Origin: a virus
Virus record (IMG/VR): IMGVR_UViG_3300034111_000335
Coordinates: 54,887-118,886 of that record
DNA: 64,000 nt
Strand: one strand, 5' to 3'
In this document: positions 11,761 through 34,886 of the stretch, piece after piece
How the letters are laid out: every line of letters begins with the position of its first letter
How positions within the stretch are numbered: position 1 is the stretch's first letter
The notes under the pieces: generated by a model
Database searches by the model: none
The model's input: only the letters and a program-made list of their open reading frames with translations
Told to the model about the DNA's origin: nothing
Made by a program: the position numbers and the translations under genes

Positions 11761-11763
11761 ACC

Positions 11764-13485
11764 ATGCCAATTTCAGCACAACATACCAAATTTGTCTACC
11801 CTGACTACATTGAGTCGCTTCCTGCAGATGACTTAATTAAACTTGCTGTGAAGAAGCAGGAAATGTTTGATGAGGGTAGATCTAAAGTACAACAGAGTAT
11901 AGACGCTTATGGTAAGATTCGTAATAGTCTTGTACGAGATGTAGACAAAGAGTACTTTGACAAGAACATGAATAACTTGGTTAAGGCTATTAACCAGAAT
12001 GCAGGCTTGGACTTTTCTGTTAAAGGAAATGTAGACTCTGTTCTTAACATAGGAAGACCATTAGAAAATGATGCTACTTTATTAGGTGCAGTAGATTCTG
12101 CTAAGACGTACAACTCTATGATGGAAGAGTATAAAAAACTTGATCCAAAACTTAAGAGTCCTGTAAACGATTACTTTTATTTTAAAGATATCGCAGCTTG
12201 GAAAAACAATGGGGACGTAGGTACTAAGTTAAATTACCAAAGTTACAAACCCTATCAAGAAGGAACAGGTAAGAAATGGGGAGAAGCTTTCTCTAAAATT
12301 AAGCCTAACATTGAAACACAATTTGAATTTACCCCTGACGGAAGACGTATTCAAAAAACAGTAGTAAGTAGTGTAGATCAAGGACGTGTTAGAGATGCAT
12401 ATATGTCTATGCTTACTCCTGCTGAAATGGAACAGTTGCAAATGGATGCTCAGTATAAGTATCTGAATTCTAATCAAGATGCAATTAAAGGTCAGTATCA
12501 AGGACACATGAATGAAACTCTTCAGTTAAGTAACGCTCAAATTGAAGACCTAGAGAATAGAAAAGTAATTGCTAAACAAAAGAATATTCCTATGGACGAT
12601 CCAAGAATTCTTGAGATTGACCGTAACTTGAGTAAAGCTTACATGCAAAGAGATATCTTAGAAGGAAGAGCTTCTAGAGGACTAGCAGATATTCCAGACA
12701 ATGAAGTAATAAACTTCTTACAAGATCAAACTATATTTGATGCAAGTAACGCTTACGCTTATACTCAGGTAGAAAAAGATCTAGATGAGGATCAATATGC
12801 TTTGAAAGCTTATGAGTCTCAATTAGCTATTCAAAAAGAAGTTACACTAGACAGATTAGGACTTAGTGCAAGAAAGAAAGACGAAAAGGTTCCTTTACCT
12901 CCAGGAAGTTTTGAAGTAGATGGTGGATTTATAAAAGACACTGAAAGTGTTTCAGGTAAACCTACAGGTTTGACTCTTAAGAATGACTTGTTGTCTGGAG
13001 TTGGTACTAACGATTTACAGAAACAACAACAGTTAATGGTTGCTCTTAAGAAAGTTCTTTCTAAGGGAGTAGATGATAAAGGACAAGATATACCTGTAAA
13101 TGTAAAAGATGCTTTACTTCGTGCAGTACTTAGTGGAACTTGGGACCCACAAGATGCTAAGGTAATCAAGGCAACTTTTGGAGACGACAATAAGTACAGG
13201 AAGACTATGGAAAATCTTAAGAGTCTTGCTACTGGCTTATACGATATTCAAGATAGAAATGGTGACATTGTAGATATCAGTCAAGTAAACGCAAGAGACG
13301 CAAACATGGGTTCAGGCTATACCTTAGTTCCCAAGAAAGATAAAGCAGCTGAAGAGTACTACTTAACTGATGCAGGTGGATTTGGTTTTAAATTTGACTT
13401 AGAGGAATTAGGAAGTATGGATGCAATGGCTTTATTTAATGCTCAAGATATTAGAAAAGTTAAACCAGAAACAAATCCAAACTAA
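11764..13485 (+). CDS. Internal virion/cargo protein
   Basis: 573 aa, helical, no Cys seen. Lies between cargo genes upstream of the virion RNAP. Confidence 0.5.
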   Translation: MPISAQHTKFVYPDYIESLPADDLIKLAVKKQEMFDEGRSKVQQSIDAYGKIRNSLVRDVDKEYFDKNMNNLVKAINQNAGLDFSVKGNVDSVLNIGRPLENDATLLGAVDSAKTYNSMMEEYKKLDPKLKSPVNDYFYFKDIAAWKNNGDVGTKLNYQSYKPYQEGTGKKWGEAFSKIKPNIETQFEFTPDGRRIQKTVVSSVDQGRVRDAYMSMLTPAEMEQLQMDAQYKYLNSNQDAIKGQYQGHMNETLQLSNAQIEDLENRKVIAKQKNIPMDDPRILEIDRNLSKAYMQRDILEGRASRGLADIPDNEVINFLQDQTIFDASNAYAYTQVEKDLDEDQYALKAYESQLAIQKEVTLDRLGLSARKKDEKVPLPPGSFEVDGGFIKDTESVSGKPTGLTLKNDLLSGVGTNDLQKQQQLMVALKKVLSKGVDDKGQDIPVNVKDALLRAVLSGTWDPQDAKVIKATFGDDNKYRKTMENLKSLATGLYDIQDRNGDIVDISQVNARDANMGSGYTLVPKKDKAAEEYYLTDAGGFGFKFDLEELGSMDAMALFNAQDIRKVKPETNPN

Positions 13486-19400: not shown

Positions 19401-19448
19401 AAAGAAGTCAAAGACGCTTGTAAAGGTGACTTAGACGATATTGCTTAA
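13485..19448 (+). CDS. Giant cargo/ejection protein with Gly/Ala-rich membrane-type segments
   Basis: 1987 aa. AGGAMVAQMLPIIATGGLVGGAVKGLAG hydrophobic region, long charged helical region, P/T-rich linkers. The single Cys is residue 1979. Confidence 0.6.
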   Translation: MPDKFTGNVGPYAKPLAGAAPGDMRSRFNELVPMEVQNAYQQKAEIDVLEADRLENQKLLQEQRNVKLNSLKSLYRQAMPNPQFADRAASSVFDRIENAGSKQELNDIYSEIEGIREKAQDSLFLFDGMETFSGIAQSLASTAEGFFFGKETEVNKKKKLLKQANPDLNDVAGSVLPRDLFSEGVNAIKEAEFKSYGQKILTQYESPLALNQALEKARHGSSGAYKDFDAFVAPRLDDAFATKGHYLYREGEEAAQFQKDARNAFANPTYNQVSANFKHDLEKESLSSLKGAVMQKLQGELLKPRDAVDYNADNIKYYRNSLNIIDQRLNSLAGVYKVDKYAPDITLFGEKSSARRSTFKALGDTLPGQWVLDLIGGSDFDKAVFSESFYKPEVITYDAENRPVMSNQFMYTKADGSKGFNYGAIPEAGGAMVAQMLPIIATGGLVGGAVKGLAGAELGWASSAAAGIARGYDALNKVSAFGKELQLADRAATFASVAANTIPHFVEQEKRWGGNYVKRGFAGGIVEASAEAIGFPDVGALKMRPMTTTLASSAMRSAGLELNFGQRLGAYLNNSYEFAKMATKQNAVEALEEELSLIGNSIVQNTLMPEEYALRDREQVTAKTLTDTLVESFAAGLIYSFGTTGAGAYSYTRPENLKNMANWEAANNADLFVAKLSDLKDKGKITDQDFVQGMAKVRNLQGTLKSMVGFDSIRDLKTLNVDKDEQYNLFTNLLRKNELLTIDYDSLSEDEKNTLAKYKIANKISQKEAGKIEEIKKQLAEISTKENPTPAEIEKSVELTLLYQRIKRANIQSVKKGEISEEDKKFFYEKGLLQDADLQFTREDIDKEIASIDKSILKTQKRIDRYANLTDSEKRDVIRQVYDEKIDAVMNIDGTAELVSSMSALKKDLDYLKLKGEEEVPGQIEHKERLLDAYGKKMYDLTNERDEFGQNKIEQKVSTFDAVALEQEGDFYSMLEAQEYLSANKDHVNQELYDTVQENLNDSFERAQAALAEATPEVRSKILTDFLDKVTLKNTKYAYNVNLVNSLFPSAEYTQEELDNSREELIQRRAQRRSAQVLGTETLSEDEEEQKDQKEFNEVATQAAQTPEVVDESGNSNRDEIYLAGYNRMLEKAKNNPMGFDKAFESAVKSRLSRVFTRGTKDYNTLTNAFDNLLDKKITPEEFRNIFLSVWRDNKADEKKANAVIFLKFIADRYFANDMPADRVASTTPAAKTTPVTPAATGTTTTTPPKTVAKNAPTPKQGGKVDRLNEVVTQEVKARMTQLEYLASPLRSIAFEYNRQNEKNQDPAVLRNIALLEKLSSIPGSRIRVMNRKLFLTYHIMQRNAEVDPTEEFEKIATYISENQMSVDTWNALSEEEKESLMSPIDAILGKNFYDEGMVRFFFTSTDSKGKLYPVGSGLFTNAEPIITAVDGEENLITIDGLPMELNMPTVSKGEYPISDRIIEEYSKLGGSEQELRNKNADTFERLKALKKSISAANSFNDSLPYMDFDFNVSSGVMLPTPINTFEKGNTTEVENVKKARISDFKIIEDPRESVFGKSFAFEKGRVYFNNNGNPTLLTNNKIDPAEADALAEVYFSEENPYFASPKEAEAYLFNLINQVDKKTRLHFFVNEEYPGPGQFPVIIVKSVETGTGFQNTVLTKEEFASTLKNHYYKASLALMKSGEPVLRFKPEGAVTQNYAEYLKDTHNFPIKDGEVAKPVNKIVYLSTESLAEQFPEITGIVPKVETPKQVPTTPVVPAQPVSVADTTLPALQTLSILLFPRALDAISQSAVADAPQLSAVKTVGEEFYQMAINTVLADPSKLSTVYYPKLIKNNTGGTGASVYFELTPYDPTDPGALGSPFYIARVQIAEREKPVTLVLVKPKSPFGGKFGTPRFLAEIDLANPSEGKMSSTIPSAPVAPVVPIAPVEPPATKKARPVLTANTFEEPQAEVTSESPFLDSLQDEEELRAAAKEVKDACKGDLDDIA

Positions 19449-19486
19449 CTATCATAGATAATTAAAGCAAAACTAGATTAACAACT

Positions 19487-19494: not shown

Positions 19495-19516
19495 TAATAA
19501 TAGCAACTAAAATAAA

Positions 19517-22500
19517 ATGATTTGTCCTAACTTAAGTGATAGTAAGATACGTGCTGAGTTTACTCACCTTAGTAACCTAGTAGGAGAAGACTTTGCTTAT
19601 TTCGTATGGAATAGGAATGGTGGATACCCTCTAGATAAAACTGTGATAAAAATAAAAGGAAAAGAAACAGTAGTTGACAATCCTTTATATGCTCATTTTT
19701 TAGACTCTTACAAAAATGTAAAGCAAGCTACTTTAGCTACTTCTATTTTTTACAGTAAGAAGTTACATAAGAATAATCCTAACTTCAAAGATCTTCCAGT
19801 CCAAGAGCAGGCAAACATTATACACAACTTTGTACAGGAGAATGAAACTCTAGAGAAAGCTTCTGAAAGAGTAATGAAGTTTATTGCTCAGGGTTTTAAG
19901 GCAGAAAGAATCATAAGCGAAAATCTACAAAAGGTTGCTTTTGATGAAGCACGTAAGATTGCTAACGGTAGACAGTTGTTAGATTCTTATATGTGGTTTA
20001 AGAGTTCTCCTTTATCTCAGCACTTAGACTTTGTGAACATGCAGAACAAAGAAGAAAGTTCTTTTGCTACATGGACTAAGTCTGCAATTACTTTATACAA
20101 AGGATCTGATTACTCTGATCTATACCATGAAGGATGGCATGAATTCACACAACGATTCATGACTAAGGAACAAAGGACTGCTTTATACCAAACGGTTAAA
20201 TCAAGACCTTCTACCGCTACTATTAATGGAGTTCAAGTACCTTACTATGCTTTGACTAATCGTCAGATAGAAGAAGTACTTGCAGAAGAATTTAGAAGGT
20301 TTGCTTTAAATAAGTCTAACCCTGAGGTTATCCCTCCAGTAGTAGAGACTCCTGTAAGAAATGTTTTCCAAAGAATTTGGGACTTCCTTACAAGTTTGTT
20401 TATAGTAAGCCCACAAGAAGTTGCTCAGCAAGATCAAGACGCATTAGTAGAGGGTGTTGTAGGTTTATTTGAGAAACTATATGCTAACCAACTATCTGAG
20501 TATAGACCTAATGCAAGTAACATCTCTGAGAAAGTATTAAATAGAAATAAAGAATTCCAAATTAACTACAAAGCAAAGGACGGAAGAATAATTCCTTTTG
20601 GTTACAATGCTTTAGAGGCTGCTGAAATCTTTAGTGCTATTGACTACTTCTTAGCAGACGCAATGGATAACTTTACAGATGCAGAAGGTAATCCAACTAA
20701 GCTAGAGATGTCTTTCTTAATGGATCCTAAACTTAAGTCTATATATCTACCTAAGTTGTATGAGAGTGCCAGGGATTCTATGTTGCAGTATATCAATGCT
20801 TTACAAGGTGAAGTACCTACTGCTGATGAAGCTACTGCTGCTGTTTTAAACTCTAGAATCAAAAACTTAAAAGGACTTGTAGTACGTACTGCAGAGAATG
20901 ATGGTTGGGCAGAGGTAGTTAAGAATCACCAAAAGAACTCTAAGGGTGGAGTATTCTACTCAGGTAATAACTTAAACACTGCTGACGTAGACAATCGCTT
21001 AGATGAAACTAACGAAGAAAACTTTACTAGGGATAGTAGAAGTTTTGCAAATGCAGAGGATGTAGATCCTATGAGCTTAGCTTCTCCTGAAATTCTACAA
21101 CTTATTAAGACTCTTCCTGGAATCTATTATAATAACAAAGGAGAACTTATTACAGCTACAGGTAACTCTTTTGGTTTACCACAAGCAGGAGACTTCCTTA
21201 GAAATAAAAACTTAGTTTTAAATAAGGTAAGTGGAGCCATTAATTATGAGGAAGCTATTCAGAGACTTAGAAACTCTCTAGATATTGCTCCACAATTGCA
21301 GAACTTAATCAACAGATTACCTAATACCTCTGACACACTTTCGTTGGCTCAGATGGCTTTAAAAGCACAATTTATGCAGTTTGCAGCTATGCCTACTGTG
21401 GCTCCTTACGAAGTTAAGTCTAGGATTAAGTCTACAGCTGCTAAAGTGTCTAAGAATAAGGACAGTGTAATGGAGCACGTAACTTTCTTGAACAATACAA
21501 TGTCTCAAGAAAAACTTATTGAACACTTTGATCAGAACTTTGTAACTAACAGACTTCGTAAGTATAGAATAACTGATCCTACAGAAAGTACATTAGCTGT
21601 ATTTGACTCTGCTGGAATACTTAGCGACTATGCTGCATACAAAGAAGTAGGCTTTACTTCTGATAAAGCAGTGTTTGAATTCTTAAACGATGCTTTTGGT
21701 ATCGACTTAGTTAATAATAAAAACCCTAACTTACTCTTTAATAAAAAAGGAGAAGTACAGCTTAGTGTAAATCCTATCTTTACTCCTACCAACATAAGAA
21801 ACATCAATAAGATTGCAAACAATGCTTTGTTTAAGTTAAATCTTATTTCTATGCTTCCATCAGAAGTAACTGTTCCTACTGTTGGGTCTAATCCTTTGTT
21901 GACTTTATCTTCAGACATATCTAAGCAACTTAAAGCTCAGATAGACGCACTGCCTAATAATCCAAAGAACAAAGAAATTAAAGAGTACTTAGCTAAACAC
22001 TTTAAGGCTGCAACACTAGACAACGAAAGAACTTCTGCTTTCTCTACGTTTGAAAAGATTTACAATATCTCTAACTCTGCTTCTTATATTAGTCCTGAGG
22101 GTAATTTAGAATATGCAATTAGAGAATGGAATCACTTACTAGATACAGTTTCTAAGATCAACAGTGTACAGACTAAGTTTGATCTTACAGGACATTTGAA
22201 TCCTGAAACAAATAATTTTATTGAACACAGTATCATTATGAAGCGGATGTTCCGTGCTGATAATGGTGAAAGGAGACTTACTAATTCAGGAGAGGACGTT
22301 GAACTAAGAGTTACTAATATGTCTGGTTACACTATAGGAACTACTATGGGAGACAAGACAACTAACCTTACTGGAGATGGAAAACTACTACAAGACTTTA
22401 TAGCTTTTAAGAAAGATGCTGTAGTAGAAAATATGAGAGTAGGAGCTAAGAGTAGTTCTTTTGCTACATTCCTAAATGGTAACAAGTTAGACAGAGAGTA

Positions 22501-25500
22501 CTTTCCTTTAGAAGAATATAATTTTAAAAACAAAGCAGTATTGTCTTCCTCTTTCATAGCTCAGATGCAACAGTATTTGTACTTTGAAGCTATGCGTATG
22601 TTTGATGATAAGGCTAAGTCCAACAAGAAAGAAATCTTAGGATCTGATTTTATCATATTCAAAGACATGATTCCTGACTCTATTCAAAGTAGAGTTAAGG
22701 AAGCTGTGGCTAATGCTGAAAGTAAAGCAGCTCTTAAAGGTGCTTTAACAGGAATGTTTGGCATGTCTAGTAACTCTCTTTACGGAGAATTCAAGAATGC
22801 TTTAACAGATTACTTTGCAAACTCTGTACAAACTCTTAGAACTTCTTTTAAAGAAATCTTAAGCAAAGGAGAAAACAAAGACTTAGCTCAACAATTTAAC
22901 CGACTCTATCCAAAAAATAGTGGATCAGCGTATACGGATGAAGAGATTGATTCTAATCTTATGCACTTTACAACTAACTATTATGTGCATCAGGTAGAAC
23001 TACTCCACTTAACTGTAGGAGATCCTTCTAACTTCCAAATTAAAAACTCAGATTGGAGAGGATTGTTTAAACGCTTAGGTGCTACTATCTCTCCAGGAAA
23101 ACAACCTAGACTTGACTCTCAAGATATAAACTCTTGGAACACTAGTTCTAATGGTAGCCTCTCTAGAGGACTTGAAGAAATTCAAAGAGGTACAGGAAAG
23201 TCCAGACAATACGATAATAACCTTAACTACGTACAGTACGAAGATGTAAAGACTTTTGACTACTTAGATGAAAGTACAAAAGAAAGCATCAGAGAAAGTA
23301 TGAGAGAAAACTACTTGAGTGCATTAGCTACTGTTAAGGGTGCTCTTACTCCTGAGGACATAAGCAGAGAAACTGCTAAGATTGACAAAAACCTTGATGC
23401 TGTATTCGAACAAGGAAAAGAATCAGATGCTCAGGCTTATGCAGGTTTAGATTTTATTCGTTTCTACCTTAACTCTGTTGGGGAATGGCCTAATGACTTA
23501 GAACAAGCATATAAACACGAGTTAGAAGTATTCAAGGCAATTAAAAAATATAGACAGTCAAACTCAGATCAAGACAAAGCTGAAGTCTATTCCTTGATTG
23601 CAAAAAGTAATCTAGGTATTTTGACATCTTTAAAGCTTGGATACTATGGTTCTCCTACAGACTTTACTAAATACAACGTATTAGGTAAGTACTCTGTGTT
23701 TCCATTAAGTCCTTCTATGGTTTTTGACACAGACTTAGAAGATGTTATGATGGACTACTTAGACAAAGGTGTAGACTTAGCGACTTTCTCTAGCGGTAAT
23801 AAAATGGCTCTTCCTACAAAAGAACTTCCCTACTATGAAAAGAAAGTAGTAAAGGGTAAATCGGAGTATGTAGAAGGAGACAACGGGCAGTTAAAGATTG
23901 GTAAAGTAGATCCTGAAGCCGTAATTAGACTTCCTATTGACGGTCTTCGTAGACAACAGTACATTGCTCCTAAAACAAAGAATGAAGCTACTTTATCTAC
24001 ACAGATGGTTAAACTTATCTTTAGTAACTTTTATGTTGGAGGAGATATTAATCCTGCTTATGCTCACCTAGAAGAAAAGATTAACAATCTTCAAGAAGCA
24101 TTTATTGATAATATTAAAGTTATCGTAGATGTAGAGAAAGCAAAAATCTACTCTAAGATTGGTGCTACAGTAGGTGCTGATGGTAACATAACAGGTATCA
24201 ATACTGCAGACTTTACTAGCTGGTTGCATAGTGAGTTTGATAAGAAAGACGTACCTACTTCTGTGTATTCTTTCTTAAGACCTACTGTTAATAATTCTTT
24301 TGTATTCTCTGTAGATGCAGGAGTACAACGTTCTTTGATAGATCAGATTATTTCTTCTGCTTTATCTAAGCGTGTATTGAGACCTAAGTTATTTGGTGAA
24401 GCTTACATACAGTTAGCTTCTACTGGTTTTAACAAATTAGGTACTCGTATGAAGAAGCCTACTACTTCTCAATTGAAATCTATAGCTAAGGGCTTCAATG
24501 TAAGCGGTCTAAGAGACTATCGTATTGAGAATGGAGTAGTACAGCCTGCGGATGTTTTAATTCCATTTAATCCAAAGAAACACACTCCCCTATTAAACTT
24601 AGAGTGGAATGGTGCACCTATCCAAACACTAGATAGATTAAACCAAGCCTTAGAGGATGATGCTTGGGTAGCAGAACACTCTGCTAAGATTAGTATAGTA
24701 GGGGTACGTATTCCTGTTCAGGGATTAAACTCTATGGAACACTTTAGAGTACGTAGGTTCTTATCTAATGTAGGAGGTCCTGTAATGGTTGTTCCTCCTT
24801 CTATTGTAACTAAGTCTGGATCGGATTTTGACATAGATAAATTGTTTATGTATGAGCCAGAGTTAGACGATAACGGAAACTTAGTATCTAATTCTAGACT
24901 AAGTGACCCTGAGTTTAGAACACAAGTCATAGATAATATCTTGGCAAAGAATGAATTCTTAGCTCTTAGAGCAGATAGTTTACAAACTTTGTTTGCCTCT
25001 GCTGACTTTAAAGAAGCGGGCTTAGTATCTAAAGAAATTGAAACTCTTAAGAAGTTTATAGACGATTTAAAAGAAGCTAAGAATTCTGGAGACCAAGATG
25101 CAATTACAGAATTTAAAGAAAACATTGGTCCGTTAAACATGAAGTTAGGTATTGCTATTGAGAGATTTAAAACTCTTCGTAGTCAAGACCCTAAAGTAGT
25201 AGAGATGTTACAGAATTTAGTTAGTGCTAATGAAATACTTGCTGATATGAAAGACATTTCAGAGAAAGCTCTTAAGGGTTCTGCTTCTAATAATATGATC
25301 TCTGTAATAGCTTCTGTGTTGTCTGAGCCAAGTATCTTTACAGAATTTACCAAGCCTAACACTAACGTTATTCTTCCTGCTATTGCAGAAGAATATCAAA
25401 AACTAAAAGGTAAAGAGAGTCGTATTTCTTCTAGTGCTATGTTCTTGATTGAAACTTCTGTTAGAATCTTTACAGAGAATAACTTAGGTAAGAAGTCTTT

Positions 25501-28054
25501 GGGTGTAGATGCTAAGACTAACGCTTTGCATAAACTATTCCAACAAACTGGACTTAGATTTAAAAGTAATCCAGAAGAAGTAGACATAAATAAGTTCTAC
25601 TTACTTAAGTCAAACAAGAATAAAAATACTAAAGAGATTGAGTTAGGTGGTTTGTATGACGCTGATGGAGTAAATCTTATATCTGACGTAATCAACGAGT
25701 TTATTAACGGTCACGTAGATATTGAAAACGAAGACTGGATTAACTTCTTTAACGCAGATAGAGAAAGAACACCTTTAATTCTTCAGATGGTTCTTAACGG
25801 TACTCCTGTAGATGAAGCTATTTTATTGGTTAACCAACCTATCATCCAACATTATATTAGATCTAGTAAGATTACTAAAGTAGGTAAAGCATTAGGACAG
25901 AAACCTGCTGACTTGTTTAAGGACTACATTATTCCTGCACTAAACTTTTTAGGAGAAAAACCAGTCTTTGTAGAAGGTCAGATAGACGAAGCTCTTACTG
26001 TAGAAAAGGTTCTTAGCACACCTAGTATTACAAGTGCTTTATCTGCAGAAAACTTTAACAAAGAAAACTATCCTCCTAACCCTAATGTAATTAGAAGTTC
26101 TTACGAAAAGATCAAAGCTAATAGAAATAGTAAAGAAGGAACTGAAGCACTAAGAGCACAGTTAGCATTTATAACTCAGTACTATGTTGTTAAGCAACAG
26201 AACCAAATTTTATTGTCGTTAACCAGTAACATAGATTTCAACACAGCTAACTATCGTATTAATACAGAATTCTATGCTACTTCTACAGGTATTAATGAAG
26301 CGAGAGAAAACTTTAACAGTGAGGCAATTGATAAAATTCTTACAAACAGTGTTGTTTCTCCATTTAACGTCCTTGAAGCCAATCAATCTGTAGTAGATCA
26401 AGTGTGGGACTTCTTTTCTCTTCCGCTAGTTAAGGATTATTTATATAAAGTTAAGCAAGAGTATGGTAAGTATTGGAGTAGAGACAAGACAGTTAGAAAC
26501 TTTAACCAACTTATGAACTCTATGATGCTGTCTTTCTTTCAGAATATTCCAGAACTTAAACCTTTGTATGCTAAGTATAGTGCTGAATCAGGTCTATTAG
26601 ATATTAAGTCTGGAAATAACTTACGTGCTAGGTTTGACAGAATATTTAACAACACAGAAGATCCAAAGATAAAAGCCTTTGCCTCTAATAATATTATCCT
26701 AAATAACTTTACTTCTATCATGGTAGAAGGAACTAGCATGTTCTATCCTGGTATGCTAACTAACGAGAAGGATGTAGACACAGTAAACGCAGGACAAAAA
26801 GACTTCTCTGATGGACTTAATCATCCTAATCCAGAAGTAAGAGGATTCTTTAGTGATCTAGCTAATGCTGTTTTATTAGGACAAGGATCTAACATTAGGT
26901 ATCGTTCTATCCATAACTTTATTCCTATGGAAGCTCAGACTGAAAGTATGATTGAATTGTCTATTGTTCTTAAAAAGATTAAAGAGTCTATAGATAACCT
27001 AGAGACTGCAGAATTCTTAAAGGATCTTTTAAATAAGACTACAAAGACTCATGCATCTATCTACTGGCCAAGTAAACAAAACAAAGTAGTAGTTACTAAT
27101 AAGATGAAAACTTTCCCTGACTTTAGACAAGTAATAGAAGAGAAGCCTCAGATTACTAGTAACGATGACTTAGATGAAGCTATGATCTATGCACAAGAAT
27201 CTTCTAGTGATGCTCCTGAACCTGACTTCAATAGTATGGATGAGGAGTTTATCATAGCTAAGAAGCTTGAGGAAAAGAAAGCAAAGGCAACTGTTCCTCC
27301 ACAGAAAATTACTACTCAATCATCTACTATTGTTAAAATAGATTTCCAGGAAGAACCTACATCAGGATATAAAAATAGAACTATTAAGAATGCAAGTGCT
27401 GATGCTACAATAGCAATAGCCGTTGACTTTAATACAGCTGGAGAGAAACTAACCAAGTCATCTGTAGAAAGCCAGGGTAAGAAATACATAGCCAGAAACC
27501 TTGACGAGATGTTTGTTCCTGTAGATCCGTTTAACGCAAGTAAAGGATATGAGCTCAATGACAAGGCAATATTTAATATGGCAGAAAGTATTGTAGCTGA
27601 TTTGAACAACGCAAATGCCAGGACGCTTAACATAGCCGGTAATGGTATCTACACAATGAAAGGAAAATATCCTCAAGCTTTGTTAGATGGTGCCATGGAA
27701 CGTTTGCTGGAATATGTCACTCTATCTGATAACTTGAAAAACAAGATTGTTTCAGTTAGAAGTGGTGGGCAAACTGGGATAGATGAAGCAGGAGCTAAAG
27801 CAGGTATCAAACTGGGTATTCCTACTACTGTTCTTGCTCCTAAAGGATGGAAATTTAGAAATGAATCTGGTACAGATATATCTAATGAACAAGCATTTAA
27901 AGCTAGATTTGTTTCTACTCAACCATCTACTCTACCTAAAAATCTAACACTTAAGAACGGAGTTTCCTACCCAATAACAGATATAGACATACCCTTACTA
28001 GAAAGCTTAGGGTATAGTGCAAAAGAAATGAACGAAGTATTTAATAACTGCTAA
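19517..28054 (+). CDS. Virion-packaged single-chain two-barrel RNA polymerase (crAss-like), with N-terminal zincin motif and C-terminal SLOG domain
   Basis: 2845 aa. RIPVQG..GSDFDIDKL catalytic DxDxD (about 24824), KRLGATISPG, DAQAY. HEGWH..EEVLAEEF near the N-terminus. SGGQTGIDEAG near the C-terminus. Confidence 0.9.
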   Translation: MICPNLSDSKIRAEFTHLSNLVGEDFAYFVWNRNGGYPLDKTVIKIKGKETVVDNPLYAHFLDSYKNVKQATLATSIFYSKKLHKNNPNFKDLPVQEQANIIHNFVQENETLEKASERVMKFIAQGFKAERIISENLQKVAFDEARKIANGRQLLDSYMWFKSSPLSQHLDFVNMQNKEESSFATWTKSAITLYKGSDYSDLYHEGWHEFTQRFMTKEQRTALYQTVKSRPSTATINGVQVPYYALTNRQIEEVLAEEFRRFALNKSNPEVIPPVVETPVRNVFQRIWDFLTSLFIVSPQEVAQQDQDALVEGVVGLFEKLYANQLSEYRPNASNISEKVLNRNKEFQINYKAKDGRIIPFGYNALEAAEIFSAIDYFLADAMDNFTDAEGNPTKLEMSFLMDPKLKSIYLPKLYESARDSMLQYINALQGEVPTADEATAAVLNSRIKNLKGLVVRTAENDGWAEVVKNHQKNSKGGVFYSGNNLNTADVDNRLDETNEENFTRDSRSFANAEDVDPMSLASPEILQLIKTLPGIYYNNKGELITATGNSFGLPQAGDFLRNKNLVLNKVSGAINYEEAIQRLRNSLDIAPQLQNLINRLPNTSDTLSLAQMALKAQFMQFAAMPTVAPYEVKSRIKSTAAKVSKNKDSVMEHVTFLNNTMSQEKLIEHFDQNFVTNRLRKYRITDPTESTLAVFDSAGILSDYAAYKEVGFTSDKAVFEFLNDAFGIDLVNNKNPNLLFNKKGEVQLSVNPIFTPTNIRNINKIANNALFKLNLISMLPSEVTVPTVGSNPLLTLSSDISKQLKAQIDALPNNPKNKEIKEYLAKHFKAATLDNERTSAFSTFEKIYNISNSASYISPEGNLEYAIREWNHLLDTVSKINSVQTKFDLTGHLNPETNNFIEHSIIMKRMFRADNGERRLTNSGEDVELRVTNMSGYTIGTTMGDKTTNLTGDGKLLQDFIAFKKDAVVENMRVGAKSSSFATFLNGNKLDREYFPLEEYNFKNKAVLSSSFIAQMQQYLYFEAMRMFDDKAKSNKKEILGSDFIIFKDMIPDSIQSRVKEAVANAESKAALKGALTGMFGMSSNSLYGEFKNALTDYFANSVQTLRTSFKEILSKGENKDLAQQFNRLYPKNSGSAYTDEEIDSNLMHFTTNYYVHQVELLHLTVGDPSNFQIKNSDWRGLFKRLGATISPGKQPRLDSQDINSWNTSSNGSLSRGLEEIQRGTGKSRQYDNNLNYVQYEDVKTFDYLDESTKESIRESMRENYLSALATVKGALTPEDISRETAKIDKNLDAVFEQGKESDAQAYAGLDFIRFYLNSVGEWPNDLEQAYKHELEVFKAIKKYRQSNSDQDKAEVYSLIAKSNLGILTSLKLGYYGSPTDFTKYNVLGKYSVFPLSPSMVFDTDLEDVMMDYLDKGVDLATFSSGNKMALPTKELPYYEKKVVKGKSEYVEGDNGQLKIGKVDPEAVIRLPIDGLRRQQYIAPKTKNEATLSTQMVKLIFSNFYVGGDINPAYAHLEEKINNLQEAFIDNIKVIVDVEKAKIYSKIGATVGADGNITGINTADFTSWLHSEFDKKDVPTSVYSFLRPTVNNSFVFSVDAGVQRSLIDQIISSALSKRVLRPKLFGEAYIQLASTGFNKLGTRMKKPTTSQLKSIAKGFNVSGLRDYRIENGVVQPADVLIPFNPKKHTPLLNLEWNGAPIQTLDRLNQALEDDAWVAEHSAKISIVGVRIPVQGLNSMEHFRVRRFLSNVGGPVMVVPPSIVTKSGSDFDIDKLFMYEPELDDNGNLVSNSRLSDPEFRTQVIDNILAKNEFLALRADSLQTLFASADFKEAGLVSKEIETLKKFIDDLKEAKNSGDQDAITEFKENIGPLNMKLGIAIERFKTLRSQDPKVVEMLQNLVSANEILADMKDISEKALKGSASNNMISVIASVLSEPSIFTEFTKPNTNVILPAIAEEYQKLKGKESRISSSAMFLIETSVRIFTENNLGKKSLGVDAKTNALHKLFQQTGLRFKSNPEEVDINKFYLLKSNKNKNTKEIELGGLYDADGVNLISDVINEFINGHVDIENEDWINFFNADRERTPLILQMVLNGTPVDEAILLVNQPIIQHYIRSSKITKVGKALGQKPADLFKDYIIPALNFLGEKPVFVEGQIDEALTVEKVLSTPSITSALSAENFNKENYPPNPNVIRSSYEKIKANRNSKEGTEALRAQLAFITQYYVVKQQNQILLSLTSNIDFNTANYRINTEFYATSTGINEARENFNSEAIDKILTNSVVSPFNVLEANQSVVDQVWDFFSLPLVKDYLYKVKQEYGKYWSRDKTVRNFNQLMNSMMLSFFQNIPELKPLYAKYSAESGLLDIKSGNNLRARFDRIFNNTEDPKIKAFASNNIILNNFTSIMVEGTSMFYPGMLTNEKDVDTVNAGQKDFSDGLNHPNPEVRGFFSDLANAVLLGQGSNIRYRSIHNFIPMEAQTESMIELSIVLKKIKESIDNLETAEFLKDLLNKTTKTHASIYWPSKQNKVVVTNKMKTFPDFRQVIEEKPQITSNDDLDEAMIYAQESSSDAPEPDFNSMDEEFIIAKKLEEKKAKATVPPQKITTQSSTIVKIDFQEEPTSGYKNRTIKNASADATIAIAVDFNTAGEKLTKSSVESQGKKYIARNLDEMFVPVDPFNASKGYELNDKAIFNMAESIVADLNNANARTLNIAGNGIYTMKGKYPQALLDGAMERLLEYVTLSDNLKNKIVSVRSGGQTGIDEAGAKAGIKLGIPTTVLAPKGWKFRNESGTDISNEQAFKARFVSTQPSTLPKNLTLKNGVSYPITDIDIPLLESLGYSAKEMNEVFNNC

Positions 28055-28056
28055 AA

Positions 28057-29043
28057 ATGATTTGCCCTAACAAAAATACACCTGAGTGGAAAGCTATATC
28101 AAATGCTCATCCTACACTAGCATATTACCTGTGGAATAAGTACGAGGGTAATATACCTTCGTACTATACACAATCCGTAGGTAAGGAAGGAGTAACAGAA
28201 CTGTTTGAATCTACTCCTGAGTTAGCTAATATAGGTACACCTCAACAATACTCTCAGTACTTAGATTCTATCTTTCCTGAAAGTAAAGTAAAAGATATTG
28301 TTTATCATGGTACTCATACTAGATTCAATAAGTTTGATAAAAGTTTATCTGGAAGTAAAACAAAAGCCTCTATTAACGGTAAAGGGTTTTTCTTTTCAAA
28401 CAGTTTAGGTATAGCACAAGGATATAGACAAAGTTTAGAGCAGTCCAATATTTATAACGATGTTATATTTTATTACTATTTTAAAAGAGATCTGGCTAAT
28501 AAAAATATTAAAGATGTAACTCAAGAAGAGTGGCAAGAAATAGTATTAAATTATTTTGGATCTGAAGACTTAAATGTTCAATATTTACAAAGACAGTCTT
28601 TAGATAAAACAAAAGAACTTTTTGAAAAATTTAAAAATGATAAACAATTTAATACTGTTCAATATGTAGATGAACTTGATTTTTCAGAATATTTAAAAGA
28701 TGATTCTATAGTTTATTCAGCATTATTAGAAGTAAATAATCCTTTGGTTGTTGAAGGAAATAATTACCAAATGCTATCTATTGTTAAAAAAGAAATAGAA
28801 AAATTAGAAGAAAATAATGATTCTATTATATTTAACAATGTAGAAGATGGAATGTCTGGTAGTTATAGAGGTGTTGCCAATACTTATACAGTATTTGAAC
28901 CAGAACAAATTCACATACTAGGAAACAAACAAGACATAGAAGGGTTTAAACAATTTGTAAGCAACTCTAACCCTATGACTTCACCAGATATGTCTAACCT
29001 AGAAAATACTGAGTTCGAAGTGATTAAGTGTAGGGAAGATTAA
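28057..29043 (+). CDS. ADP-ribosyltransferase-like (ART-PolyVal type) protein
   Basis: IVYHGT..FNKFDKS..GKGFFFS..AQGY, LEVNNPL, DSIIFNNVED, YTVFEPEQI follow the ART-PolyVal pattern. Confidence 0.7.
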   Translation: MICPNKNTPEWKAISNAHPTLAYYLWNKYEGNIPSYYTQSVGKEGVTELFESTPELANIGTPQQYSQYLDSIFPESKVKDIVYHGTHTRFNKFDKSLSGSKTKASINGKGFFFSNSLGIAQGYRQSLEQSNIYNDVIFYYYFKRDLANKNIKDVTQEEWQEIVLNYFGSEDLNVQYLQRQSLDKTKELFEKFKNDKQFNTVQYVDELDFSEYLKDDSIVYSALLEVNNPLVVEGNNYQMLSIVKKEIEKLEENNDSIIFNNVEDGMSGSYRGVANTYTVFEPEQIHILGNKQDIEGFKQFVSNSNPMTSPDMSNLENTEFEVIKCRED

Positions 29044-29051
29044 AAACCAAC

Positions 29052-29059
29052 TATATTTG
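29052..29059 (+). promoter_or_regulatory. TAnnTTTG -7 box
   Basis: TATATTTG in the intergenic region, followed by an A-rich leader to the ATG at 29100. Confidence 0.55.
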
Positions 29060-29099
29060 TAAGTAAACAAGTAAACAATTTAAATTTAAATAAAACAAG

Positions 29100-32000
29100 A
29101 TGTCTAAAGGCTGTGTTATAAAATATACTAATCCCGTAACAGGGATGAATCAAACTTCTGTACTTGCTTATACTCTATCACAAGTAGGATATAGTAACGA
29201 GCAAGCTATAGACTTAGTTAAGCAAGGAAGTCTATATTCTAAAAAAGATGGATACAATACCTGGCCTAAACCTCTTAACAAGGATAAGAGTAGGTTTGGA
29301 AATTTTGTAGAAATAGACTCAGACAACTTACTTAGAAACGTAGGTATTGATTCGTTAACCTCCGATCAAGTTAAGTATCTTAGAGCAGCTCAGGATTTAT
29401 TTGAAGATGTTCAAGTAAGAATAGATAATCCTATTAATCTTACTACTCTAGTAGAGATGGCAAACTACATTAAAAACAATGGACTTGCCTCTGTAAGTAT
29501 AGAGATTGTTAATCCAGAAGCACCAGTATTAGAAAGGATGTACAAAGTATATCCTATACCTTTTACTGAACTAAACATGGTATATCTTTCTAGTTTTATT
29601 GAAGGAGAAGTATTTAATAAACGTCTAGTAAATGGAGAAGAGTCACGTATAGAGTTCTTAAAGAAGTACGTAGACTTTCAAAATCCTGATGTCTATGATA
29701 CTTTAGTTAAGATTCTAAACGACCCAGAGACTCCTGACTACGAGAAGTTTGTGATTAAAAAACTTTTACCTATTATAGACTTGATCCCTACAATCGGTTT
29801 AGACTTTTTTACAGGTAAAGACTTACAAAACAGAGATGTAATTCCTATGGGAGAGTATGTTCCTGAACTACATAAAATTAAACTAAATGTATTTGGATTA
29901 AAGAATAGAGGACTAGATTATTCTAGACGTGTTATTCTCCACGAGATTCTACACTCTGTTCTATCATCTACGTTACAAAATCCTACAAGCGAGATAGACA
30001 AAGAACTTGTAAATAGTCTTAAGCCTATCCTTGCCTACTATCAACAGAAATATTCTACAAAAAAAAGAACAGACACTTACTATGGTTTTAAAGACATACA
30101 CGAGTTTGTATCAGAGTTTTTTACTAATCCTGATTTCCGCAACACTCTAGAGTCGGAAGAACCAAACTGGTTTATTAAAATTATAGATGCTATCTTTAAG
30201 TTCTTTGGTAAGAAGTTAAATCTAAATCAAAATCCTAATAGCCTAGAGAATATAGATCTATTGATGGAAAACTTCTTCAATGAGATACTCCTTGCTCAAG
30301 ATATTAATACTAGTATTATATATACTAAGTTTGATTCTATACCCTATACTATGAGTGTGCCTCAAATGCTTGAGATGGATACGTTTGTAGAGGAGAATTC
30401 AGACTTCCTTACTCGTTTAGATGAACTATTACAGGACGAAAATCTAATCAACTGGAGTAAGGTAAGAGATCAAGCAGAGATTCTAGGAGTAAACGTAGGC
30501 AGTGTATTAAGAACTAAGGACATGTTCGTAGAGATTTCTGCAGCTGAGGCTAAAGAGTCTTTTAAATCTTTAGTAAGTTTCTTCCATGATAGCTCTAAGT
30601 ACTTAGCAAGTGTTCGTACTTCTCTTAACAAGATGTCTTCTGATCCTACAATAACCAAAGATCAACTGTTTAGACAAGCTTACCATGCTAAAGAGTTAGG
30701 AGAGCAGTATACAAACCTAGCACAAAATTATCGTAGAGTTATGGGAGACCTAGGAGCAAACACTATTTTGGGTCAACAGTTGTTAAACTTAGAAGCTACT
30801 GCAGATTCTTTGTCTAAGGCTTATTTTAACAACGCTGTAGAGGCTTTAGCTATTAAGTTGGCAGATGAGTTCGCACCACAGACAAAAGACGCTCAGAAGC
30901 GAATCCAAGACAATATAGATAGGTTTAAAGTTTCATTAGCAAGTGCACAAAAACTAGGAAACACTAGACTTATAAAACTTACCGAAGATCGTATTAGGAA
31001 TGAAGAAGCAAGAATGTCTACCCTAGCTACTAAGACTAACTTACTAAAAGCACTTAGAGGTCAGATAAAAGACGTAGGAAACTTCTCTCTTTTCTTAGAG
31101 TCAGCAGGATTATCAGGAAACATTCTTACAGGTACTGTAGGAGGTATGATTGCTAATCAGTTTGATACAGCTAACGTAAAGGCTCAAGCAATGGAAGTTA
31201 AATTAAAGAAGATTGCAGATGAGTTACAAAACCACCTAAAGAGTAAAGGGATGGGAGTAAATACTGCATTCGACTTTGAAAATGTATTTGGACGTTTCAT
31301 TAAGAAAGTAGAGATTGTAGAAAACAAGAATGGAAAAATCTCTAAGAGAGAAACACTAGTTCTGTTGAGTGAGATGGATGAAGTTCGTTACAACAATCTT
31401 ATAACTAAACTTAAAGCAGAGTTAAGAGAATTAAAACAAACTAAGGTACAAGACTCTACAGTAAAAGATTTAATCAGAGCTAAAGAAGAAGAGATTCGTA
31501 GAACAAGATCTGAGTTTGAAGTACAGCCTTTTGAAGATATCTACTATCAAATTCAGAACATGCTTAGTGCAGAAGCTAAAGAAGCTAGAGACTTAATCTT
31601 TGAAGAGATGAATAAGATCCAAGTAGGAAGTCTTACAGAAGAAAACTCAGAAGAACAGTTAGATAAATTAGATGACTTAAAAGAAGAACTAGACTTACTA
31701 GAATCTGATTACGATAAAAACAAAAACTTAAAAGATGAAGCAGGACTTAGAATTGCTGCTAACATTAGAGAATGGAAGAAGAGTAGAGCTGCTGCAGAAC
31801 TTTATACTTACACTATCAGTAAAGAAAACCAAGCACTTTTTGACTCTCAACTAAATTCTAAAAAAACAGCTTACGATAAAGCAGCTGCTGACTATCAACA
31901 AGCAGTAGACGACAATGCTGATGCTGATACCTTAGACTACAAGAAACAAACAGTAGATTACTATAAGAAACAGTTTGAGTTGTGGAAAGCAAACAACTGC

Positions 32001-34886
32001 GTAAGAAAAATTGATCCTGAGTTCTATAAACAAAGAAAAAAAATAGTAGATGCAGTTGCTGCTATTCAGTCTAGGTATCCTGTTCCTTCAGGTGTTCGTA
32101 AAATGGATGAAGTATGGAATGATATATTCGGGGTATTGAAGGGATATAAGAACACAGATAACTTCTACGAAGGTTCTAAGATCGCTTCTCCTAATCCAGA
32201 TGGAACTCCTTCTAATCTCTCTACTCTTGTTAGAGCATTAGAAGAAGAAATAGAAGCAATTAAAACTGCTTACAAGACTGATGTAGATATGTCTAAAGAA
32301 GATTCTGACAATCTCAAGGATCTGTTTTCTTCTTTTGGAGACATCCAAGAAAAGGTCTACACTCCTGATTATGTAAGGGAATACACTAGTAAGTTAAATC
32401 TAATTAAAACTTCTTTAATTGCTCAAAACAATGTAAAGTACCAAGACCAAACTGATGACTCTCTATTAGAGTTAGATGCAACTAAAGAACTTAGAAAGAC
32501 TGATTGGTACAAACAAAACCACAAAAAAGTAAACGTATGGGATGAGAACAATCAGATATGGACTTTATCTGATGAACCTTTATATTTCTGGATGTCTACC
32601 GAACCTACAGATAAAACTTTGATTAGCGATACTTCTCCTTCTTTTAGATGGAATACTATTGCAGTGAACCCTAGATACATTAAACCAGAAGTAAAGAATG
32701 TAAAATACAGTAAGCGTGTTCCTTTACGTACAGACAGAACTGAATATAGAAACAAAGAGTACGATAAATTAGATGCTAAGGAAAAAGAAATTCTTCAGAA
32801 GATTACAGATCTTTATTTAGATCTTCAGAAAGGAACACCTATGAATCTTAAGAAAGGATTAGAGTTGCCTAGTGTTATGATGGACCCTGTAGAAAGGTCT
32901 CTGAAAGATACTAATATGGGTACACTTAAATCCAAAATAGGATCTACTTTTCAAGGTATTTGGGATAGAGCTACTTTTGAAGATGACGAAGAAACAGCAA
33001 GGACTGAAGAAGGGGGATCTGTTATACAAAAGGTAAGTAAGAAACTTTATTTAAAATATAATAGACCTATTCCTGCAGATAAAATGAGTCTAAACATTCT
33101 TAACAGTATTGGAATGTATGGTGCAGACTTAATCAGATTCAAAGAAGCTTATGAAGTAATGCCTTACATCTATGGTATGCAAGACGTATTAAAAGAGTCT
33201 TTGCCTGGTACTAAGATTGAGAAGATGATTAATAACTTGTTTGAACGTAAGTTACAAGGTAAGAATCGTAAGTTCTTAGTAAACAACAAAGCGGGTAGAA
33301 TGGTAGAGAAAGTACTTGATATGTCTTTATCTGTCAACTCTCCTATTGTACTTGCTTACCGTCTTCCTTCTAGTGTAAAAAACTTTATGGCAGGATCTGC
33401 TAACATCTTTATACAAGCTGGTATATATGGTTTAAGTCGTAAGGAAATTTTTAAGGCTATGGGTAGAAATGCTGTACATATAGCAGACTTGTTTCAGTCA
33501 GAAGTAGAAGATGGTAGAGATTCTGAATACATTGCTCGTATGAGATACTTTAATGTTATGCCAGAAGATCAACTAAGTGAAACAGGACGTAAGTTATTTA
33601 TTTCTAAGTTAGGCAAGTATCGTAAGTACAATCCATTTAACTTTCTAGGATTCTTTAGAACCTTTGGTGAATTTGAAATGAGAAGTGCAGTTGCAGAGGC
33701 TATGTCTCAGCAGTTTTTAGTTCCTTTGATAGATAAACCTGAAGGAGTTCCTTTGTTTGAAGCATACGACTTTAAAGACGGAATTCTTGTTCCTAAGGAT
33801 ACGATTGTAGACTTAGAAGGATTTTCAAAAATAGAACAATACTACAGAGGTAAACTTAACCACGTTAACGCTGCTATCCAAGGTGCTTATGGATCTATGG
33901 ACAAAGGAGAGTATAGTAGATACACTCTTGGTAGAATTATAGGAAACATGAAAGGATGGGTTGCTTATCAAGGTATGAGGAGATTTAAAGTAGGCAGAAC
34001 TATTAATCCTAGATCAGGAGAAGAGTTTCAAGGTTTCTACGTGACAGTAATTCAAGCGCTTAAATTACTTTATCAAACAAACTTCTCATTACCGGCAACT
34101 AGAAATCTTATGACTCCTGCAGAACGCAGAGAAACAGAAGGTGCAGCTATAGATATGCTTGCATTAGCTTTAATTATGGGAGTATCTGCCTTGCTTAATA
34201 GTTTAAGATATGATGATGAGGATGATGAAGATATGTATGTAGTGTATTTCTTGCTTTATAACTTGTTATTGATTGAAGACGAGTTAAACAGTTTGAACCC
34301 TGTATTTAGTCCTTTGTCTATTTACCATTCTAGGTTTGAAAACAACGTAGACGGACAAAACTTTGCTCAGTATTACTTGAATAGAAACGTATTACTTCCG
34401 TTTGCAGGTGCTACAGATGCTGTAAAACTAACTGTAGAAATGCTTAATCCTTTTGACGATGCAAGTCCCTTTGATGAGTATGTTCCTAGGAGTAGAAGTG
34501 GTAAGATCTCTAACCCTAAAAGATACCCACCAGATCCTACTCTTAAAGGAGATATAGAAATATCTGCTCGTATCCAAAAACTATTTGGATTAAACGCTTC
34601 TATAAACTACTTCTTAAACCCTGAGTATCTGTTTAGAAAGTACGAAAAGTATAACCCTAAGTGGTATGTAAGTAGTTTAGAAGCAGACTTAAGAGGAGAG
34701 AAACGTTCTGTAAACTCCATAGATAAACAAATAAAATCTATTGAAAGACAAATAGACTACGTAGACGATGTAGATACTAAGGAAAGTCTATTGAATAAAA
34801 TAGAATCCTTACAGATGGAAAGATCAGAGTCTAGAGATAGGACATCTTCTTTAACAGAAATATACTCAGAGACTGGGAGGAAATAA
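29100..34886 (+). CDS. Giant cargo protein with zincin-like metallopeptidase (MPTase-type) domain
   Basis: 1928 aa. ILHEILH..YGFKDIHEFVSEFFTNPDF (HExxH plus downstream E). Helical body and a hydrophobic C-terminal segment. Confidence 0.7.
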   Translation: MSKGCVIKYTNPVTGMNQTSVLAYTLSQVGYSNEQAIDLVKQGSLYSKKDGYNTWPKPLNKDKSRFGNFVEIDSDNLLRNVGIDSLTSDQVKYLRAAQDLFEDVQVRIDNPINLTTLVEMANYIKNNGLASVSIEIVNPEAPVLERMYKVYPIPFTELNMVYLSSFIEGEVFNKRLVNGEESRIEFLKKYVDFQNPDVYDTLVKILNDPETPDYEKFVIKKLLPIIDLIPTIGLDFFTGKDLQNRDVIPMGEYVPELHKIKLNVFGLKNRGLDYSRRVILHEILHSVLSSTLQNPTSEIDKELVNSLKPILAYYQQKYSTKKRTDTYYGFKDIHEFVSEFFTNPDFRNTLESEEPNWFIKIIDAIFKFFGKKLNLNQNPNSLENIDLLMENFFNEILLAQDINTSIIYTKFDSIPYTMSVPQMLEMDTFVEENSDFLTRLDELLQDENLINWSKVRDQAEILGVNVGSVLRTKDMFVEISAAEAKESFKSLVSFFHDSSKYLASVRTSLNKMSSDPTITKDQLFRQAYHAKELGEQYTNLAQNYRRVMGDLGANTILGQQLLNLEATADSLSKAYFNNAVEALAIKLADEFAPQTKDAQKRIQDNIDRFKVSLASAQKLGNTRLIKLTEDRIRNEEARMSTLATKTNLLKALRGQIKDVGNFSLFLESAGLSGNILTGTVGGMIANQFDTANVKAQAMEVKLKKIADELQNHLKSKGMGVNTAFDFENVFGRFIKKVEIVENKNGKISKRETLVLLSEMDEVRYNNLITKLKAELRELKQTKVQDSTVKDLIRAKEEEIRRTRSEFEVQPFEDIYYQIQNMLSAEAKEARDLIFEEMNKIQVGSLTEENSEEQLDKLDDLKEELDLLESDYDKNKNLKDEAGLRIAANIREWKKSRAAAELYTYTISKENQALFDSQLNSKKTAYDKAAADYQQAVDDNADADTLDYKKQTVDYYKKQFELWKANNCVRKIDPEFYKQRKKIVDAVAAIQSRYPVPSGVRKMDEVWNDIFGVLKGYKNTDNFYEGSKIASPNPDGTPSNLSTLVRALEEEIEAIKTAYKTDVDMSKEDSDNLKDLFSSFGDIQEKVYTPDYVREYTSKLNLIKTSLIAQNNVKYQDQTDDSLLELDATKELRKTDWYKQNHKKVNVWDENNQIWTLSDEPLYFWMSTEPTDKTLISDTSPSFRWNTIAVNPRYIKPEVKNVKYSKRVPLRTDRTEYRNKEYDKLDAKEKEILQKITDLYLDLQKGTPMNLKKGLELPSVMMDPVERSLKDTNMGTLKSKIGSTFQGIWDRATFEDDEETARTEEGGSVIQKVSKKLYLKYNRPIPADKMSLNILNSIGMYGADLIRFKEAYEVMPYIYGMQDVLKESLPGTKIEKMINNLFERKLQGKNRKFLVNNKAGRMVEKVLDMSLSVNSPIVLAYRLPSSVKNFMAGSANIFIQAGIYGLSRKEIFKAMGRNAVHIADLFQSEVEDGRDSEYIARMRYFNVMPEDQLSETGRKLFISKLGKYRKYNPFNFLGFFRTFGEFEMRSAVAEAMSQQFLVPLIDKPEGVPLFEAYDFKDGILVPKDTIVDLEGFSKIEQYYRGKLNHVNAAIQGAYGSMDKGEYSRYTLGRIIGNMKGWVAYQGMRRFKVGRTINPRSGEEFQGFYVTVIQALKLLYQTNFSLPATRNLMTPAERRETEGAAIDMLALALIMGVSALLNSLRYDDEDDEDMYVVYFLLYNLLLIEDELNSLNPVFSPLSIYHSRFENNVDGQNFAQYYLNRNVLLPFAGATDAVKLTVEMLNPFDDASPFDEYVPRSRSGKISNPKRYPPDPTLKGDIEISARIQKLFGLNASINYFLNPEYLFRKYEKYNPKWYVSSLEADLRGEKRSVNSIDKQIKSIERQIDYVDDVDTKESLLNKIESLQMERSESRDRTSSLTEIYSETGRK

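Follow-up and report, generated by a model that had tools for sequence, protein, structure and literature searches.

Paired cysteines at the facing ends of crassvirus polymerase-module cargo proteins and their possible role as end-to-end couplers

How do crassviruses, which are more abundant in the human gut than any other viruses, pack ~0.7 MDa of polymerase-module proteins and deliver them through a narrow tail? The locus studied here bears on this question through the placement of a few cysteines. In a 64,000-nucleotide stretch of the IMG/VR virus record IMGVR_UViG_3300034111_000335 (positions 54,887 to 118,886; "the window" in what follows), four consecutive cargo genes encode protein A, protein B (a virion RNA polymerase [RNAP]), a short ART-like link protein, and protein D, and nearly all the cysteines of these proteins sit at ends that face the next gene. 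An earlier note, made by a model from the sequence alone, had proposed that each C-terminal (tail) cysteine pairs with the N-terminal (head) cysteine of the following protein. The terminal-cysteine pattern is conserved across relatives and covaries with gene breaks, and the pattern itself points to putative end-to-end links that would join the proteins into one thread. The members of this chain and the elements discussed below are the following, in window coordinates and with lengths in amino acids (aa).

13485..19448, plus strand: protein A, 1987 aa, first member of the chain, with a tail cysteine only (codon 19419-19421), in the place of phi14:2 g067 and crAss001 gp47.
19517..28054, plus strand: protein B, 2845 aa, the virion RNA polymerase, with head Cys3 (19523-19525) and tail Cys2845 (28049-28051).
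27956..28051, plus strand: window-specific 32-aa RNAP tail, residues 2814-2845 (...KEMNEVFNNC), absent from the 98%-identical proteins of loci L004 and L008.
28057..29043, plus strand: ART-like link protein, 328 aa, with head Cys3 and tail Cys325.
28057-28230, plus strand: N-connector of the link, residues 1-58.
Within the link, plus strand: predicted ART-PolyVal core, residues 81-286, from a Pfam match.
28846-29040, plus strand: C-connector of the link, residues 264-328.
29100..34886, plus strand: protein D, 1928 aa, last member, with head Cys5 (29112-29114) and without a tail cysteine, a homolog of phi14:2 g065.
9286..13485, plus strand: two Cys-free cargo-like proteins of 824 and 573 aa, upstream of and outside the cysteine chain.

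Together, A, B, the link, and D comprise 7,088 residues and hold seven cysteines in their open reading frame (ORF) translations, six of which stand 0 to 8 residues away from an end facing the gene that follows. The sole cysteine of A is residue 1979, 8 residues before the C-terminus; B has exactly two, Cys3 and Cys2845, the latter being its final residue; the link has exactly two, Cys3 and Cys325; and D combines Cys5 with an internal Cys967 that is retained in close relatives only (codon starts at 19419, 19523, 28049, 28063, 29029, 29112, and 31998). The outer ends of the chain, that is, the N-terminus of A (MPDKF...) and the C-terminus of D (...ETGRK), are free of cysteine, as are the 476-, 824-, and 573-aa proteins encoded 5′ of A. 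The positions and counts that the earlier note had given for the cargo proteins could all be reproduced from the translations and codon coordinates, including the bare outer ends and the absence of cysteine from the 824- and 573-aa proteins, which the 476-aa protein shares. Cysteine is depleted ~17-fold in the seven cargo ORFs (7 in 8,961 aa, compared to 141 in 10,732 aa for the other ORFs of the window; Fisher p = 8.8e-29), and the binomial probability, for the window only, that at least six of seven cysteines lie no more than 9 residues from a terminus is 7.6e-12. The window's other ORFs that reach 100 aa, 34 in number, served as control; a cysteine occurs within the first 10 residues in 1 and within the last 30 in 11, and in none of them at both ends. 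The sum of tail and head offsets takes no constant value over the three junctions of the window (8+2, 0+2, and 3+4).

Is this arrangement peculiar to the window? We retrieved 53 IMG/VR loci with the window RNAP (20 to 98% identity), and wherever the cargo block was covered the rule was kept, with giant proteins carrying one or two cysteines at their facing ends. A table of junctions between plus-strand ORFs of at least 200 aa, from which gaps of >150 nt or < −60 nt and open-ended ORFs were excluded, contained 156 junctions, 110 of them distinct. Both the tail and the head cysteine were present in 54 of the distinct junctions and neither in 51 (upstream cargo genes and unrelated genes); none had a head cysteine only, and 5 had a tail cysteine only. 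Each of these five is explained: two are Cys-rich fibre-like ORFs outside the cargo block, one (L048) is an artefact of the ORF start, and two (L028 and L031) precede an inserted ORF with a GIY-YIG-like start, after which the next cargo ORF of L028 again carries Cys4, the contig of L031 ending there. As a separate observation, the inserted small ORFs (L028 21521-22168 and L031 11243-11923; start M(L/Q)(-/L)NSGVY...), putatively GIY-YIG-like, sit exactly between the tail-cysteine protein and the next cargo gene. At the level of single columns, we aligned the window with 16 relatives, hand-chosen among the 53 loci so that each represents a different sequence group; in the resulting 17 sequences, the tail cysteine is the sole invariant column of the last 120 aa of protein A, and Cys3 is the sole invariant column of the first 450 aa of the RNAP.

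A skeptical account of these counts would combine chance with shared ancestry: cysteine would be generally avoided in ejected proteins, a few residues being tolerated at floppy ends. Suppression of cysteine is documented in N4-like ejection operons (PMC11445570), and relatives are not independent samples. Yet the N4-like ejection proteins are wholly Cys-free (PMC11445570), whereas here the ends keep their cysteine invariantly amid varying flanks; new breaks gain a cysteine pair in at least three independent lineages; and the binomial value given above is reached in the window alone. Nor does a high cysteine content abolish the pattern, as seen in L050 (4583-16999), where a distant RNAP-like protein of 2832 aa holds 23 cysteines and still has Cys5 and a cysteine as its final residue, followed by a protein with Cys5. 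This account is disfavoured and improbable in the extreme; the terminal-cysteine pattern is not chance.

The same question can be put to cultured crassviruses, for which the earlier note had proposed a check of phi14:2 gp65-67 and the crAss001 cargo, and here the same terminal pattern recurs. In phi14:2, g067 (1797 aa) has a cysteine as its final residue only, Cys3 and Cys2179 are the only two of the RNAP g066 (2180 aa), and the sole one of g065 (1421 aa) is Cys3; in crAss001, gp47 has one cysteine, at C-2, gp50 has Cys5, Cys1334, and one at C-8, and gp49 has Cys5 only. The module proteins of both phages are known from mass spectrometry to be present in the virion (10.1101/2020.03.07.982082, PMC10172136). 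Another Kehishuvirus and crAss002 also follow the rule. In crAss001 and Kehishuvirus, gp47, with its tail cysteine only, is encoded on the opposite strand from gp50 and gp49 and the cysteine count is still kept, so the rule tracks the order of the protein chain rather than gene adjacency, and an artefact at the nucleotide level or of DNA junctions is excluded. The earlier statement that cysteines occur only at termini facing a neighbouring gene is therefore correct for the window and fails as a general rule. In crAss002 (L054, NC_055828.1), gp32 ends in ...VCS and the annotated gp33 (10203-22940) has its first cysteine at residue 35; the internal sequence MSCTPSNP, from Met33 on, agrees with the head motif and is probably the true start, which would place the annotated one 32 codons too far upstream. 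In cr10_1 (L056, NC_055875.1), we observed a 4460-aa protein whose last cysteine is 10 residues from its end and, adjoining it after 17247, an unannotated ORF starting MKIICPNL.

Published work on these phages sets the frame for such a pattern. The crAss001 cargo is listed as gp45, gp46, gp47, gp49, and gp50, and its order is attributed only to packing and mutual interactions, with the qualifier "probably" (PMC10172136). The virion disulfides described there are those of the gp57 dimer and of tail hub and ring proteins; in the accessible text of that paper the disulfide passages concern gp57 and tail proteins only, and cargo cysteines go unmentioned (PMC10172136). In the accessible text of the phi14:2 gp66 preprint, the terms "cysteine," "disulfide," and "Cys" have 0 occurrences; its authors note that gp67/gp66/gp65-type proteins are fused as a "polyprotein" in some phages, assume that it is cleaved, and leave the activation of gp66 unresolved (10.1101/2020.03.07.982082). 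We found no description of terminal cysteines in crassvirus cargo in the literature searched, supplements and the disulfide list of PMC10172136 (Extended Data Table 2) aside.

What happens to the cysteines when genes fuse or break? In every complete chain, the number of facing cysteines equals 2(n − 1), where n is the number of members and takes the values 2, 3, or 4. Chains of two occur in the L034 group, where a fused protein of 4176 to 4348 aa with one cysteine at C-1 or C-2 is followed by a ~1620-aa protein with Cys4 only, and in L051 to L053; most loci have three members; and the window, L028, and L049 have four. Fusion of A with B removes the tail cysteine of A and the head cysteine of B jointly, leaving fused genes without the pair. 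A residue aligned with the cysteine was sought in the fused proteins of L041 and L045, where a weak match to the ART head region (E 2e-7 to 5e-8) has no cysteine at that place, a suggestive result. Accidental breaks also lack the pair, namely an in-frame TAA in the RNAP ORF of L002 (9015-9017) and, in L021, a frameshift within the homolog of D (~19200-20140), sequencing errors or recent damage being the likely cause in either case. On an RNAP-core tree (39 rows, being the window and 38 of 58 loci, built by a quick method with n assigned by hand and with the end ORF running off the locus in five rows, L001, L033, L035, L040, and L049), n changes at least five times and four-member chains arose three times.

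A recent break can be read from the window itself. L004 and L008 encode one polymerase ORF of 3124 to 3148 aa, which has only Cys3 and a cysteine 3 residues from the end and which carries a different C-terminal module, although it is 98% identical to the window RNAP over residues 1-2813. Beyond residue 2813, only the last 23 aa, which hold the tail cysteine, are shared. In the window, ~150 aa of the L004/L008 ORF are replaced by the 32-aa tail with its cysteine and stop codon, two bases, and a new gene starting MICPN. This difference indicates that a recent module exchange created the gene break, and both new ends bear a cysteine. The claim that a C-terminal cysteine goes with an N-terminal one on the next protein thus passed the comparative test: the pair is conserved, and it is gained or lost together with gene breaks.

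These gains and losses bear on the possibility that the terminal cysteines act independently of each other, as separate head and tail signals for capsid packaging, for docking to the portal or capsid, or for processing. The head is indeed a conserved module of ~35 to 58 aa and the tail a conserved motif, and the crAss001 virion has disulfides to structural proteins elsewhere (PMC10172136). Independent signals, however, do not predict the strict both-or-neither rule (0 of 110 junctions with a head cysteine only), the missing head cysteine of the first protein and missing tail cysteine of the last, or the joint loss upon fusion, and we regard them as decidedly unlikely.

What, then, might the paired cysteines do? 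We think it rather likely that they are conserved couplers, the tail cysteine of each RNAP-module cargo protein bonding Cys3-5 of the next one in the virion, most likely as a disulfide, a chemistry suggested by analogy with the cyanopodophage A4 (see below). A, the RNAP, the ART-like link, and D would then be joined into one nearly linear thread of ~7,088 residues, in which a tail-head bond would replace the peptide bond that unites the same modules in fused-gene lineages, making the thread a reducible equivalent of a polyprotein. As the couplers are only a few residues away from the ends of the chains, the thread as a whole could still pass a narrow tail unfolded; interior cysteines would be selected against, as with other ejected phage proteins. 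Once in the cytoplasm, which is reducing, the thread would come apart at its links and set free three separate molecules, namely the polymerase, the ART-like enzyme, and the protein with the zincin motif. This release by reduction, and any role of the links in ejection order or stoichiometry, we infer. Neighbours could instead be joined through a shared metal ion or through other thiol chemistry, such as a thioester or persulfide, for which one may cite the Asp- and Glu-rich tails beside the cysteine and the HExxH motifs in B and D. One cysteine per partner makes a poor metal site, though, no conserved histidine or second cysteine stands adjacent, since the cysteine is the sole invariant column, and the A4 precedent is a disulfide (PMC12002296), so that a join of this kind seems very unlikely.

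The head (58 aa) and tail (65 aa) of the short link protein recur in the protein P0006 at 95% and 80% identity, flanking a different core, and its first 88 aa recur in P0005 at 93% with a shorter core. Among its best 120 homologs (180 to 574 aa), 80 have a cysteine at both ends, and in 77 these two are the only ones; of the remaining homologs, 21 are capped by a single cysteine at the tail and 12 by a single one at the head, and many of these singly capped proteins come from short contigs and may be truncated. One doubly capped homolog carries an RNase H domain, and another homolog, P0103, which is not among the doubly capped proteins listed, carries DUF7831. In the loci retrieved with P0042 and P0046, the ART-like module occurs as a fusion with the final giant protein, and no second standalone link is found there. 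We put forward tentatively, as a possibility that we stop short of calling probable, that these proteins make up a plug-and-play cargo train, in which a generic head (~35 to 58 aa, with Cys3-5) and a short tail ending in cysteine would allow any effector domain, such as the ART, RNase H, and DUF7831 domains seen here, to be inserted by way of disulfides between the polymerase and the partners with which it is ejected as a thread. The payload would then evolve by exchange of cassettes while the giant genes stay untouched, and the 328-aa gene would be such a cassette just after insertion.

Several points weigh against the couplers joining the proteins in gene order by disulfides. Gut crassviruses live in anoxic conditions, and the published virion disulfides come from aerobically purified virions. 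The three heads of the window share the pattern C..NP..AY.[LV][WS] and its three tails the pattern EV-x2-3-C; since heads resemble each other and tails likewise, a pairing specific to gene order is not established. In some lineages, protein A has its tail cysteine as many as 26 residues before the C-terminus. Relatives share phylogeny, so that the raw junction counts overstate independence, and the tree holds only ~5 independent architecture changes. A complex prediction that paired the N-terminal 450 aa of the RNAP with the C-terminal 120 aa of A, from alignments of 17 rows each, gave a score of 0.01 and a mark of 0.32, controls not having been folded, and counts neither for nor against a link. 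No disulfide between crassvirus cargo proteins has been observed, and the crAss001 maps left gp47, gp49, and gp50 unresolved (PMC10172136). Lastly, an intramolecular head-tail disulfide in the two-cysteine proteins, together with pairing of A with D, fits the cysteine counts equally well.

This last point belongs to a wider alternative, in which the cysteines are functional and pair in a nonlinear way: the RNAP and the link each close N-to-C on themselves, A pairs with D, or tails and heads homodimerise. Besides the counts, among them the 77 link homologs with exactly one cysteine at each end, the generic look of the heads and tails in the window is in its favour. On the other hand, (i) in the two-member chains (the L034 group and L051 to L053), the other protein is the only possible partner; (ii) the A-B fusion removes exactly the two cysteines that would face each other; (iii) homodimers leave unexplained why the first protein never has a head cysteine and the last never a tail cysteine; (iv) the bond in the A4 structure is an intermolecular tail-head bond (PMC12002296); and (v) the crystal structure of phi14:2 gp66 leaves a few residues at each terminus unmodelled (10.1101/2020.03.07.982082), which is consistent with flexible end tags. 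Nonlinear pairing is, in our judgment, unlikely, and we retain end-to-end coupling of successive proteins as the preferred explanation.

The names that the earlier note gave to the RNAP and the link hold as well. That of the RNAP agrees with a DFDID catalytic motif at residues 1770-1774 of B (24824-24838), with BLASTP matches to phi14:2 g066 (E 4e-8) and to a Kehishuvirus gp50-like protein (E 1e-13), and with tblastn matches that include records annotated "putative RNA polymerase." For the link, residues 81-286 match ART-PolyVal (PF18760) with 42.9 bits, above the gathering cutoff of 31.2, which makes it a predicted member of that family. Protein D matches phi14:2 g065 (BLASTP E 9e-17) over a region that spans the HEIMH of g065, and it has a zincin-like HExxH of its own, HEILH, at residues 281-285 (29940-29954). 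The plus-strand run of genes from the 476-aa protein to D corresponds to the crassvirus cargo block by size and order, and the 824- and 573-aa proteins correspond to crAss001 gp45 and gp46 by position and size alone. Other searches added little: A, B, D, and the 476-, 824-, and 573-aa proteins received no functional name from PHROGs; comparison of A, B, and D with PDB sequences by phmmer yielded a single match, to a designed protein (E 0.052), and hence nothing meaningful; and megablast of window positions 19000-29500 against the phage collection returned zero matches.

Some further observations concern protein B and its surroundings. A second HExxH, HEGWH, is found in the N-terminal region of B (residues 204-208; 20126-20140), and Glu252 is nearly invariant among 17 relatives. 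The HEGWH region weakly resembles the C-terminal part of a Kehishuvirus gp47-like protein with HEAFH (E 0.005), so the break between A and B may differ in place between lineages. Close to the RNAP C-terminus, residues 2747-2785 (27755-27871) match the Pfam family cpYpsA SLOG (31.1 bits; cutoff 26.2) and residues 2607-2792 match phrog_10774, a region that looks like an add-on domain of the polyvalent-protein type. A tblastn search with the RNAP protein matched 156 phage records, of which 72 are Vibrio phages, none of these being among the 40 matches listed; the match to Vibrio phages probably involves an accessory domain rather than the polymerase core. Finally, a 149-aa ORF at 8541-8990 has a cysteine as its final residue in addition to Cys118, and over its C-terminal part it aligns with the ends of several PHROG families that have no assigned function; the next large ORF, of 824 aa, is Cys-free, which places the 149-aa ORF outside the chain.

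If successive cargo proteins are indeed coupled, a reducible covalent tether would explain why the partners are loaded in equal amounts and leave the capsid jointly, and how the polymerase is released without a protease. The terminal-cysteine rule is of practical use in that it (i) corrects gene starts, as for crAss002 gp33; (ii) separates real gene breaks from sequencing breaks; and (iii) singles out a large family of small proteins, capped at both ends, that are candidates for injected effectors.

Among known systems, the closest in mechanism is the pre-ejectosome of cyanopodophage A4 (Anabaena phage A-4L), in which two giant ejection proteins are likewise encoded consecutively. In the cryo-electron microscopy structure of its virion, gp27 reaches with its C-terminal helix into gp26, where a disulfide between Cys1715 and Cys5 holds the helix in place (PMC12002296, PNAS 2025), and in the A-4L record these are the only cysteines of gp27 (1717 aa) and gp26 (1114 aa). 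The layout is that of the window, with a lone cysteine near the C-terminus of the upstream protein (2 residues off in gp27) and a cysteine at residue 5 of the downstream one (MSKHC in gp26, MSKGC in the window). In contrast to the window, A4 has one pair only, lacks an RNA polymerase in the chain, and belongs to a different phage family. BLASTP revealed no homology of A to A-4L gp27 (best E 0.33) or of D to gp26 (best E 0.013), and the resemblance lies in mechanism rather than family membership. In its accessible text, the A4 paper presents the gp27-gp26 bond neither as a general rule nor as part of a chain (PMC12002296). The earlier view that the mechanism is undescribed must therefore yield for a single pair, for which A4 is a published precedent, and stands for crassvirus cargo, where we found none described.

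Three further systems bear comparison with the window. It shares homologous B and D proteins, the DFDxD motif, and an equal terminal-cysteine pattern with phi14:2 gp67-gp66-gp65 and crAss001 gp47-gp50-gp49, from whose RNAP modules it differs by a fourth member, the ART-like link. With the N4-like (Schitoviridae-type) operon it has in common giant ejected proteins, a virion RNAP among them, that are nearly Cys-free. There, suppression of cysteine is total (DEV gp71-73, N4 gp50), the rationale given being passage through the oxidising periplasm (PMC11445570), whereas the window retains seven cysteines, six of them terminal. The fused crassvirus "polyprotein" forms, finally, hold the same modules in one chain, those of the L034 group without the internal cysteine pair; where a peptide bond unites their modules, the join in the window would be reversible by reduction.

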